From NCBI GenBank assembly GCA_026776125.1, contig GCA_026776125.1_4343.1: a DNA stretch of 44,578 nucleotides; one strand, 5' to 3'. Positions 8,130 through 10,737 of the stretch are shown one piece after another; the stretch's first letter is position 1, and the number at the start of each line of letters is the position of its first letter. The notes beneath the pieces were generated by a model that did no database searches, was not told where the DNA came from, and saw only the letters and a list, made by a program, of their open reading frames with translations. Origin of the DNA: a phage. The translations under genes and the position numbers were made by a program.

Positions 8130-8615
8130 TCACGCGGTTTCTCCGTGGTTTTTATGAAATCCGTAAGCAGCTTCCGCGGCTTTACGCGCGGCAACAGCTT
8201 CTCCAAAATCATCAAACTGTCCTAGATGTATTTTTCTTCTGTCGACTTTTATCTCTGCTACCCATTTGTTTCTTCTCTTTTCCCGCCATACACCAAGAGC
8301 GCCGCTAGTATTGTTTACCCCTATCGATGCGTTGCGGCTATTTTCAGTGTTGGTAACTTTCCGCAGGTTGCATATTCGGTTATCGGTTCGAATGTGATTG
8401 ATATGGTCTATCTGTTCCTGTGGGGTAAGTGGGTTATCTGGATTGCATATGTCCCATGCTAACCGATGTGCTAGTTCTAGTTTTCCGTTTATTCGGATAC
8501 GAATGTACCCCTCCCGCGGACAAAAACATCCGGCTTTCTTTCCAACAAAACCCCTACGTTTTGTTTCGACCCATGTGAAAATACCGGTTTCAGGGTCGTA
8601 TGATACCTTGCTCAT
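8130..8615 (-). CDS. HNH homing endonuclease with AP2-like DNA-binding domain
   Basis: HNH-type region (ELAHRLAWDIC...IDHINHIRTDNRICNLR...TNTENSRN) and AP2-like segment (WVAEIKVDRRKIHLGQFDDFGEAVAARKAAEAAYG). Confidence 0.7.
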   Translation of the reverse strand: MSKVSYDPETGIFTWVETKRRGFVGKKAGCFCPREGYIRIRINGKLELAHRLAWDICNPDNPLTPQEQIDHINHIRTDNRICNLRKVTNTENSRNASIGVNNTSGALGVWREKRRNKWVAEIKVDRRKIHLGQFDDFGEAVAARKAAEAAYGFHKNHGETA

Positions 8616-10036
8616 TTCTTACTCCTACGTTTCATATAATTAAGTAGTTCGTCCTGTACAGACCTTTTCTCATCTGTACGCGTGGCGACAACTTCATCAA
8701 GAGTATCTCGGGCTATTATTTGATAAATGAATACTGACCGTTTGTACCCAGATTGCATCTGCCTTACAGGACCTATGCGTTCGATAACCTGCAGATAATG
8801 TTCCAGGTTCCACCCCTGACTCATAAAGGCCATGTGGTGCCCGCCGTGTTGTAGCGACAGCCCGTGGCCCGCGGAGGCTGGGTGTATCAGGAGCATAGGT
8901 ATTTCCCCACGGTTCCACGCTTCCATCTGCTTGTTCCCCCTAGCGCCTTTGGCGAACGCCTGTGCCTGTGGGAATCGCTTAAGGATACGCTCCAGTTCGT
9001 GTTTAAACTGATAGGCTACCAGCAACGGCGCACCCTGCAACTCCTCAACAATCGACTCGAGCGCATCCAGTTTCGTGTCGTGCACTTTCTCCCAGTCTTT
9101 GGTCGCTTCGCCATCAGGCCCAGACACATATACGGCGCCGGAAGCAATCTGCAAACACTTCGACGTCTTCGCTGCCGCGTTAGCCGCTTCAACTTCCCCG
9201 CTCTCCAGTTCCGCGAATAACTTCTCCTCCATATCGATGTACGCCTGACGCGCTTTCTTCGGCAGGTCGATTTCAACCGGCACAATAATCGGCGCTTCAC
9301 AACCGAACCACTCGGCAGGGTCGATGGTCAGGCTGATGTCTTTCATCTTCTGATGAATCTCATTATCTGCACCCGGTCGCGCATGATACTCGCGAGCCAT
9401 AGCCGATTTACCTTTCTGTACCGAGTTAAACCAGCGGTCGGTGAATGCTGTGTACGAAGAGCCGAGGCGCTCGCCAGCGTCGATAAACCAGTTCTGACCC
9501 CACAAGTCTTTGAGGCCGTTTGGTGACGGTGTGCCTGTCAGGTTGATGAAACGCTTAACCTTTCCGAACGCAACCTTGCTGAGCGCCTTTGCCCGCTTGC
9601 TACCACCCGAACGGCTGCGGAACGATTTAAGCTTCGTGCTTTCATCGGCAACGATAACCGTAAAAGGCCAGTCGTCTTTGCCGTAGTAGTCAATTAGCCA
9701 CTCGATAACTTCGTAGTTAGTGCACACCACGTTAGCGTCTGACTCCAGCGCCGCGATGCGGCGCTTCTCCGAACCGGTCGCATCGACGACACGCAGACAA
9801 GGGAAGTTCCATTTCTCTTGTTCTGCAGGCCACGTACCCGACGCAACACGCAACGGGGCGAGGATTAACACGCGGTCCTCTTCTGTAAGCTGCCCGTTGC
9901 GGAACAAGCGGTTTAACACCCACATAGTAGAGGAGGTTTTACCCCCTCCCATGCCACACCAGATATTACAGCGAGGGTGTTGCAGCATGAACGAAGTCAT
10001 GAGCTTCTGGTATTCGCGCCTTTGAAACTTACTCAT
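8612..10036 (-). CDS. SNF2-family (DEAD-like) DNA helicase
   Basis: Walker A GMGGGKT, motif II VIVADEST, SNF2 motif III LTGTPSPN. Confidence 0.75.
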   Translation of the reverse strand: MSKFQRREYQKLMTSFMLQHPRCNIWCGMGGGKTSSTMWVLNRLFRNGQLTEEDRVLILAPLRVASGTWPAEQEKWNFPCLRVVDATGSEKRRIAALESDANVVCTNYEVIEWLIDYYGKDDWPFTVIVADESTKLKSFRSRSGGSKRAKALSKVAFGKVKRFINLTGTPSPNGLKDLWGQNWFIDAGERLGSSYTAFTDRWFNSVQKGKSAMAREYHARPGADNEIHQKMKDISLTIDPAEWFGCEAPIIVPVEIDLPKKARQAYIDMEEKLFAELESGEVEAANAAAKTSKCLQIASGAVYVSGPDGEATKDWEKVHDTKLDALESIVEELQGAPLLVAYQFKHELERILKRFPQAQAFAKGARGNKQMEAWNRGEIPMLLIHPASAGHGLSLQHGGHHMAFMSQGWNLEHYLQVIERIGPVRQMQSGYKRSVFIYQIIARDTLDEVVATRTDEKRSVQDELLNYMKRRSKK

Positions 10037-10737
10037 TTACCGCCCCCATGAATGCCTTTATAAATTCAGCGGCTACTTGCGGGACGATGGCATTGCCGTA
10101 ACCGCGCAATCGTCCCACTCTGGCGGGTATCCCATTAGCCAGCGGGAATGTGCTGGGTTCAACTGGCCGGAACTTTCCATCCTTGCGTATCACTGTCACC
10201 CCGCTGCCTTTGAAGTCGTTCGCTGTCGGTGTAGGCCAATTGGTGTGCGCCAAAGAACAGTCTGTCGCGTTTGTGCGGTGCGCCGACGCTACAAGCTGGG
10301 AGTACGGCAAACCCGACGGCGTAGTCTTCTCCTTCCAGGTGAGTTTGTAAATCGCACATCCACGATTTTGCAATTGCTGGCGCAACCTGTTCCCCAAAGA
10401 GGACTGGAGGGTGGCACTCGCTGATGAGGTCGAGGAACACAGGTGCGAGGTGTCTCGGGTCGAACTGTCCGAGTTGCTTTCCTGCCGCGCTAAACGGTTG
10501 GCAAGGCGGGCTTCCCGTCCAGATAGGCGTATCTTCCGAAACTCCCGCAAGTCTGAGCGCGAGAGGCCAGCCGCCGATACCAGCGAAAAAATGACACTGG
10601 GTGAACCCGTCGAGGTCTTCTGGCTTAACTTCGGTAATGCTTCTTTCATCTACAACTCCAAAAGGTATATGACCCTGTTTTATTAGTTCACGCAGCCACG
10701 CGGCTGCGCCTTTATCCCATTCGTTGTAATAGTTCAT
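10029..10737 (-). CDS. DNA (cytosine-5)-methyltransferase, split across two reading frames (frameshift near 10240-10250)
   Basis: ORF 10159..10737 carries motif I FAGIGG, motif IV PCQPFS, motif VIII-like [10 protein letters not shown]; the +1 frame (ORF 10029..10649) carries the C-terminal motif [19 protein letters not shown]. Confidence 0.6.

Follow-up and report, generated by a model that had tools for sequence, protein, structure and literature searches.

A phage C5-cytosine methyltransferase locus in two overlapping reading frames, probably the remnant of a dual-coding gene broken by a microhomology deletion

How does a phage come to carry the conserved motifs of a C5-cytosine methyltransferase (C5-MTase) in two overlapping reading frames, with the catalytic motifs in one and the C-terminal motif in the other? 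We addressed this question for a minus-strand locus of a phage contig (GCA_026776125.1_4343.1 of GenBank assembly GCA_026776125.1), the whole 44,578 nucleotides (nt) of which we call the window. A sequence-only reading had described two open reading frames (ORFs), 10159..10737 with motifs I and IV and a VIII-like segment and 10029..10649 with motif X in the +1 frame, had placed a frame switch at about 10240-10250, and had offered an inactivated gene, a sequencing indel or recoding as explanations. Both ORFs and all of these motifs were found where they had been described (Table 1), and the first ORF matched Pfam PF00145 at 60.5 bits (cut-off 22), covering only profile positions 64-162 of 324. 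Comparison with intact relatives makes it probable that we see here what is left of a dual-coding phage C5-MTase gene after a deletion between short repeats had broken it, and that the enzyme is most likely non-functional.

The window is a Kagunavirus genome, that is, a K1G-like Escherichia phage of the Guernseyvirinae. Over the methyltransferase region it shares 93-95% identity with K1G-like Escherichia phages, and the neighbours are those of K1G (DNA polymerase, a Holliday-junction resolvase/VRR-NUC-like gene, a 63-residue ORF, the methyltransferase and an SNF2 helicase). The nearest genomes in our phage collection were ~91-93% identical, with ~80% of 24 kb covered. Each relative aligned to the locus as two separate segments, and carried 77-236 additional bases in the gap. 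K1G provided a direct intact counterpart, with 94% DNA identity on both flanks, the same neighbours and two overlapping ORFs that are both annotated and both unbroken; it is 116 nt longer than the window. The first of these ORFs, which we call alpha, is the continuous ORF31 (274 residues, 62.8 bits against PF00145, annotated 'putative C-specific methylase'). The second, beta, is ORF30 (230 residues, annotated 'putative Mte8-like protein'), which lies wholly inside ORF31 in the +1 frame. 'Mte8' may be the UniProt mnemonic MTE8_ECOLX; a literature search for the name returned annotation mentions only.

To map the gap, we aligned the window at the DNA level with K1G, ZCEC5, SCS92 and L086, the last of which comes nearest to the window among intact relatives on the left flank, where its sequence is identical right up to the junction. 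The break falls at a GGATGG hexamer, 60-70 nt further downstream than the frame switch had been placed. The missing DNA, 116 nt when K1G is the reference and 251 nt when L086 is (both 2 mod 3), is not the single base that a point frameshift would involve. Intact phages carry two copies of the hexamer, 116-251 nt apart. In the beta frame the left copy (AAGGATGGGAAGGAC) is read as ..RKDGKDRTF..; the right copy (GGGATGGAAAGTTCC) gives ..CRDGK.. in the alpha frame. The switch had been misplaced because the WPTP stretch at 10200-10241 seems to carry on naturally from motif VIII. This stretch is part of the overlapping +1-frame protein, which is complete in intact relatives, and does not continue the methyltransferase chain.

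Recombination or slippage between the two GGATGG(A/G)AAG repeats, one in beta-frame codons and the other in alpha-frame codons, accounts for all three ORFs now present in the window. Alpha has been truncated after motif VIII with loss of motif X; its own sequence breaks off at ...DSDTQGW, and past the junction the ORF ends in KVPAS and a stop. Beta has lost its last modules and its motif IX, its first 158 residues being joined seamlessly to the last 48 of alpha. The PHROGs database holds one family per frame, phrog_363 for alpha and phrog_1008 for beta, and its profiles bear out this partition: phrog_363 matched the truncated alpha at 1.4e-65 (profile positions 10-229 of 327), and the chimeric 206-residue ORF matched phrog_1008 at residues 3-150 (1.7e-39) and phrog_363 at 1.3e-10 (profile positions 238-317). 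The two ORFs are therefore halves of one methyltransferase only in that the chimera ends in an alpha tail (its last ~48 residues, 159-206, by junction mapping), since residues 3-150 belong to the beta family. At 206 residues, the chimera falls short of the 275 residues of the 12 other members of its 90% protein cluster. The motif-IX-like segment is stranded in a third frame with no ribosome-binding site, and no usable Shine-Dalgarno (SD) sequence was found upstream of the 35-residue ORF that holds it, with stops standing close before that ORF.

The deletion also removed two conserved segments, FWSDADWLGC of alpha and ..ITASGQMLTGSDAG of beta. It had been remarked earlier that a product joined from the two frames would be almost devoid of a target-recognition region; this was right, as it is this region that the deletion took out. 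Motif X lies on the same polypeptide as motifs I-VIII in K1G, in L086 and in 84 related loci, and does not in the window. Nor does the catalytic chain hold a motif IX between its target-recognition domain (TRD) and motif X: in relatives the motif-IX-like sequence is in the +1 frame, and in the window it is in the third. Because the conserved segments are deleted, motif X is split from motifs I-VIII, and motif IX is out of frame without a ribosome-binding site, the window enzyme is most likely dead. If it is, the DNA of this phage should lack phage-encoded 5-methylcytosine (m5C).

We considered whether the rearranged locus might instead work as a three-piece split enzyme, perhaps of altered specificity, made of alpha-N with motifs I-VIII, a beta-N::alpha-C protein bearing motif X and a single WPTP module, and the 35-residue piece with motif IX. 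All of motifs I-X are still encoded within 10029-10737, and C5-MTases tolerate natural and artificial splitting (M.EcoHK31I; M.AquI, split M.HhaI and M.SssI). However, the segments lost from alpha and beta are conserved across the family, the 35-residue ORF has no SD sequence and follows closely behind stops, and more than 95% of close relatives retain both ORFs intact. We regard a working three-piece enzyme as unlikely.

The case for a dual-coding ancestor rests on the intact members of the family, for which we assembled 80 IMG/VR viral loci (L004-L083, alpha 46-82% identical to K1G) plus several others and analysed 84. The +1 frame was open over 76-100% of alpha (220-349 codons) in 84/84 loci, at GC contents of 0.50-0.71, and the +2 frame was open over only ~20%. 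When synonymous codons were permuted with the alpha protein and its codon usage kept, the longest +1 ORF covered on average 43% of the gene, compared with 89% observed, and the observed length was reached in 276 of 16,800 trials (1.6%). The +2 frame showed no length excess over these synonymous shuffles. Across all the loci looked at (L001-L084 and L086-L090), the +1 frame is open along almost the entire gene.

Selection was read from the entropies of codon positions in the two frames, and it alternates between them along the gene. Along motifs I-IV and X, variability is by far the highest at the alpha wobble position. Across alpha residues ~112-176 (motifs VI-VIII, which overlap GSTLY.LTWK..TPSGR..L.AS.RRT of beta), the three positions are about equally constrained. 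Over the WPTP modules and the conserved C-terminal segment of beta, it is the beta wobble position (codon position 1 of alpha) that varies most. The N-terminal ~100 residues of beta show no protein-level constraint, and the frame is still open there.

The start of beta is marked in most loci by GGAG or AGGAG 6-9 nt ahead of its first ATG. This SD sequence is made of alpha codons, such as GGA-GTT (G-V) or AGG-AGC (R-S), inside the conserved VDERS/RSI.DV region of alpha. Loci L051, L066 and L072, for example, build it from the Arg-Ser codons AGG-AGC within a conserved ERSI motif. AGG is a rare Arg codon in E. coli, and the choice of AGG-AGC in the alpha frame apparently serves translation initiation in the beta frame.

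These results bear on a second alternative, in which beta is a non-functional by-product of the alpha sequence and the window an ordinary single-gene methyltransferase broken by a deletion. Beta has no recognised domain, AlphaFold models it mostly at low confidence, and the unconstrained ~100 N-terminal residues would fit such a by-product as well. Against it stand the +1 frame, open in every locus to a length that only 1.6% of synonymous shuffles attain, with no such excess in +2, the beta-frame wobble signature exactly where alpha is unconstrained, and the conserved SD-ATG. In addition, length varies by whole WxTP units in the beta frame only, and the beta of some phages runs on in frame into Dam or nuclease domains. 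This alternative is improbable.

Dual coding of this kind extends well beyond kagunaviruses. The K1G beta protein matched 3,453 protein clusters at 90% identity, and a beta profile matched 15,303 cluster representatives at 50% identity, most of them without a name; 254 phage records matched beta. The same layout was found in all four of the distant phages inspected (Rhodobacter phage RcMcDreamy, EBPR podovirus 2, Salmonella phage SEN4 and the T4-like Krischvirus Delraymugoa), and in each of these alpha alone is annotated. Elsewhere it is beta alone that was called, as in SCS92 (L003, ON548432; 1652-2314), NTEC3 and L084 (3001-3621). Some of these beta-only calls (SCS92, L084) are named 'methyltransferase', and the catalytic alpha, intact in the same DNA, is unannotated.

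Damaged copies were also seen. In ZCEC5 (L002, MK542015), a GAA to TAA change at 2449-2451 stops alpha early, and the last ~15 residues kept in other kagunaviruses are lost. The kagunavirus-like betas of P0082, P0110 and P0115 are truncated or internally deleted, P0115 being without TTPSG...RT and P0082 without motif IX. These last three disruptions imply that occasional natural damage of the locus is not confined to the window.

A third alternative is that the gap is a sequencing or assembly artefact and that the gene of the real phage is intact. Only consensus sequence could be consulted, and short direct repeats such as the WPTP modules and GGATGG could mislead assemblers. Moreover, the exact junction sequence was absent from IMG/VR and from every record of the phage collection, so that it rests on one sample. 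However, the Logan assembly of SRR22543867 holds the exact 206-residue product on an independently built contig (SRR22543867_81) that agrees with the window at 100% identity across 4,621 nt, junction included. A difference of 116-251 nt is also neither a homopolymer slip nor a base-calling error, and the clean microhomology at the junction is typical of a real deletion. We consider an artefact quite improbable.

A programmed +1 ribosomal frameshift near 10240-10250, linking RLFFGAH to TNWPTPTA... in a compact functional methyltransferase, can be set aside as highly improbable: the frames overlap by ~490 nt, which makes a shift sterically possible, and an order of motif VIII, WPTP and motif X resembles a plausible methyltransferase, yet intact relatives share the sequence of the site while both of their frames complete independent ORFs, the +1 ORF stays open from a point ~30 codons into alpha and has an SD-ATG of its own that a frameshift product would not need, the site has no stop, hungry codon or prfB-like motif, and motif IX and the deleted conserved segments would be missing from the product all the same. 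Among the three explanations first offered, gene inactivation is supported, by way of a 116-251 nt deletion; a sequencing indel is unlikely in view of the Logan identity and the size of the gap, and recoding is not supported, given the complete ORFs of relatives and the separate SD-ATG of beta.

What, then, would the dual-coding gene make when intact? From the comparison of loci, alpha (264-369 residues) comprises S-adenosylmethionine-binding and catalytic motifs I-VIII, a poorly conserved linker, the conserved segment W.DADW..CRDGK.RPVEPG and motif X. Beta (220-350 residues) would be initiated in the +1 frame from its own SD-ATG ~30 codons into alpha. Its parts are an unconstrained N-terminus, a conserved helix and hairpin region (SSASAALQSSL..RL...GSTLY.LTWK..TPSGR..L.AS.RRT), W-[PAST]-T-P-x-A-x-D modules in varying number and a C-terminal motif-IX-like segment. 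The WxTP modules and LNP..S.WLMG.P..W are conserved in beta. The middle of the gene varies in length by whole repeat units in the beta frame only, the number of these modules ranging from 1 to more than 10; read in the alpha frame, this DNA gives a low-complexity linker. We propose, by analogy with M.EcoHK31I, that alpha and beta of intact relatives may be translated independently from one mRNA and join into a single m5C methyltransferase that modifies phage DNA, with beta contributing motif IX and probably the target-recognition (WxTP) modules.

Some beta-frame ORFs continue in frame into other domains. In P0141 the continuation is a Dam N6-adenine methyltransferase and in P0145 a DUF2800/PD-(D/E)XK nuclease; both are candidate fusions or merged gene calls. 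The beta frame of L009 (1568-2917) runs into an EndoVII/HNH-like domain, again as a candidate fusion or merged call, and P0227 has a Cys-rich insertion in the N-terminal region of beta and HNH/EndoVII-like sequence in the beta frame.

The putative motif IX is the C-terminus of beta (...[YFL]-P-x-E-W), which resembles the motif of Dcm (RRLTPRECARLMGFE) and that of M.HhaI (RKLHPRECARVMGYPDSY). A profile that joins beta-IX to alpha-X was colinear with residues 400-450 of E. coli Dcm (hhalign P=0.0097), whereas an alpha-only C-terminal profile aligned with Dcm at motif X alone. In a shuffle test with 3,000 shuffles, the joined profile reached p~0.003 for Dcm and p~0.001 for M.HhaI, compared with p~0.05-0.1 for the alpha-only profile. 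Other searches added little. Pfam gave no extra C-terminal PF00145 match on beta or on C-terminal fragments. An artificial chimera of alpha-N, beta-C and alpha-X scored 64.8 bits against PF00145, compared with 62.8 for alpha, and likewise gained no C-terminal match. Searches of PDB sequences by phmmer and hmmsearch with beta, the joined profile and the alpha C-terminal profile returned nothing relevant. Single-chain relatives, in which one frame would hold the WPTP/motif-IX region together with the catalytic motifs, were not found among the 10 longest beta hits or 146 representatives, a search that gave one marginal PF00145 match (E=8.5e-4).

The closest known system is M.EcoHK31I of E. coli HK31 (Lee, Kam & Shaw 1995). 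As described in PMC2836561, its beta gene lies wholly inside the alpha gene in another frame, alpha holds motifs I-VIII and X, beta holds motif IX, and activity depends on both chains. Subunit masses of ~38 and ~23 kDa can be gathered from the plasmid names pET3a-M38 and pET3a-C23. M.EcoHK31I is like the present family in being a two-chain C5-MTase with a nested beta and subunit sizes that fit alpha and beta, the comparison being one of descriptions only, and unlike it in belonging to a restriction-modification system, whereas the phage genes are orphans. A nested beta of the M.EcoHK31I type is present in intact relatives and disrupted in the window, where, unlike in the enzyme as described, a deletion has broken the copy. 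Among the plasmid hits, none was a record of E. coli HK31.

Other split or modular enzymes differ more. For M.AquI and for artificially split M.HhaI and M.SssI, activity is rebuilt from a pair of polypeptides, the split being within the variable region or close to it; their parts are consecutive or engineered, with no nested overlapping frames as in the phage family. The Bacillus-phage orphan C5-MTases M.SPRI and M.Phi3TI are multispecific, with several tandem recognition modules in the variable region. The 1 to more than 10 tandem WxTP modules of beta resemble this arrangement; unlike them, the TRDs of M.SPRI and M.Phi3TI share a chain and a frame with the catalytic motifs. A second protein in an alternative frame of a phage methylase gene is also known from the 'ShiLan domain', an HNH endonuclease that lies out of frame within an actinophage methylase gene (PMC11855218). 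L009 and P0227 may be compared with this case. The ShiLan element (PMC11855218) is a mobile insertion, whereas beta appears to be a conserved enzyme subunit.

Several observations weigh against reading the locus as a broken two-subunit enzyme. The sequence similarity of beta to motif IX is short and of modest significance, and beta has no sequence match in Pfam, NCBIfam or PDB. AlphaFold models of beta alone were poor, with a mean predicted local distance difference test score (pLDDT) of 52 from a shallow alignment and 64 from a diverse one, and were confident only at a helix (76-94), a hairpin (101-123) and the motif-IX helix (204-211); a Foldseek search of the model against PDB gave no match, the best E-value of 0.22 being meaningless. 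A partly confident model would be compatible with a subunit that acquires its fold on a partner, though it is no proof of one. M.EcoHK31I is likened to the family by description, and its TRD is said to be in alpha, whereas the modular region under selection here is in beta. Translation of beta and its binding to alpha are predictions in this family, and three fragments of an enzyme class that tolerates splitting might retain residual activity. Finally, the window and the Logan contig may have been assembled from the same reads.

With these points weighed, the deletion in the window is an ordinary gene inactivation, and the breadth of dual coding is the more interesting part. We lean, by a little, toward the view that these orphan phage C5-MTase genes (in Kagunavirus, N15-like phage-plasmids, P2-like phages, Casjensviridae and the T4-like Krischvirus, with ~15,000 clusters matching beta) are obligatorily dual-coding, with a +1-frame beta that supplies motif IX and exchangeable, possibly multispecific WxTP target-recognition units and that databases mostly list as 'hypothetical protein' or mislabel as methyltransferase. 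The nested-beta design has a known precedent in M.EcoHK31I; our literature searches found no paper describing a two-frame architecture for phage orphan methyltransferases. If the family is dual-coding, then M.EcoHK31I, long a curiosity, would be one member of a common architecture.

For annotation, the window locus should be recorded as a disrupted methyltransferase (pseudogene) rather than as two genes or a recoding event. The predicted lack of phage-encoded m5C would affect sensitivity to host restriction; conversely, loss of m5C could help a phage on McrBC-positive hosts. Across the family, our results suggest that the specificity-determining part of many phage C5-MTases resides in an unannotated protein. 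Because gene callers choose one frame or the other, both methylome predictions and counts of 'hypothetical proteins' in phage genomes are affected. The locus is also a rare example of conserved, long, same-strand dual coding with selection alternating between frames, and is suited to studies of overlapping-gene evolution.

Table 1. Features of the methyltransferase locus and its neighbours in the window
Feature	Position	Strand	Remark
Truncated alpha ORF, 192 residues	10159..10737	-	Part of the C5-MTase large domain; PF00145, phrog_363
Motif I, FAGIGG	10570-10587	-	In alpha ORF 10159..10737
Motif IV, PCQ (catalytic Pro-Cys)	10498-10506	-	In alpha ORF 10159..10737
VI-like motif, GEQV	10384-10395	-	In alpha ORF 10159..10737
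Motif VIII	10249-10278	-	In alpha ORF 10159..10737
Chimeric ORF, 206 residues, +1 frame	10029..10649	-	Residues 1-158 from beta, 159-206 from the alpha C-terminus
Beta segments in chimeric ORF	10395-10424; 10311-10352; 10200-10241 (one WPTP module)	-	
Motif X	10059-10103	-	Closing part of chimeric ORF, in the alpha tail that begins KFRPVEP
Deletion junction, GGATGG microhomology	10177-10182	-	From alignment to intact relatives
Stranded beta C-terminus, 35 residues, third frame	10073..10180	-	Found also at the end of intact beta in K1G, SCS92 and L086
Motif-IX-like segment	10115-10162	-	Within the 35-residue third-frame ORF
Beta start	SD GGAG 10656-10659; ATG 10647-10649	-	6-nt spacer; within alpha codons G-V-V-D-E
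Upstream ORF, 63 residues	10734..10925	-	TGA overlaps alpha ATG (ATGA, 10734-10737), as in K1G
SNF2-family helicase, downstream	8612..10036	-	Start overlaps the methyltransferase gene end by 8 nt (10029-10036), as in K1G

The beta ATG of the window comes directly after a +1-frame TAG. The 8-nt overlap with the helicase gene is the same as in K1G, which indicates that the methyltransferase gene has kept its native register at the 3' end. On both sides the methyltransferase is closely coupled to its neighbours, through the ATGA at the 5' end and this overlap at the 3' end.

Directly downstream of the SNF2 helicase gene, the window carries a 161-residue HNH_3 (PF13392) gene at 8130-8615 on the minus strand, which is also present in the twin contig L085 and is probably a homing-endonuclease insertion. 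At its position, L086 has two small ORFs instead.

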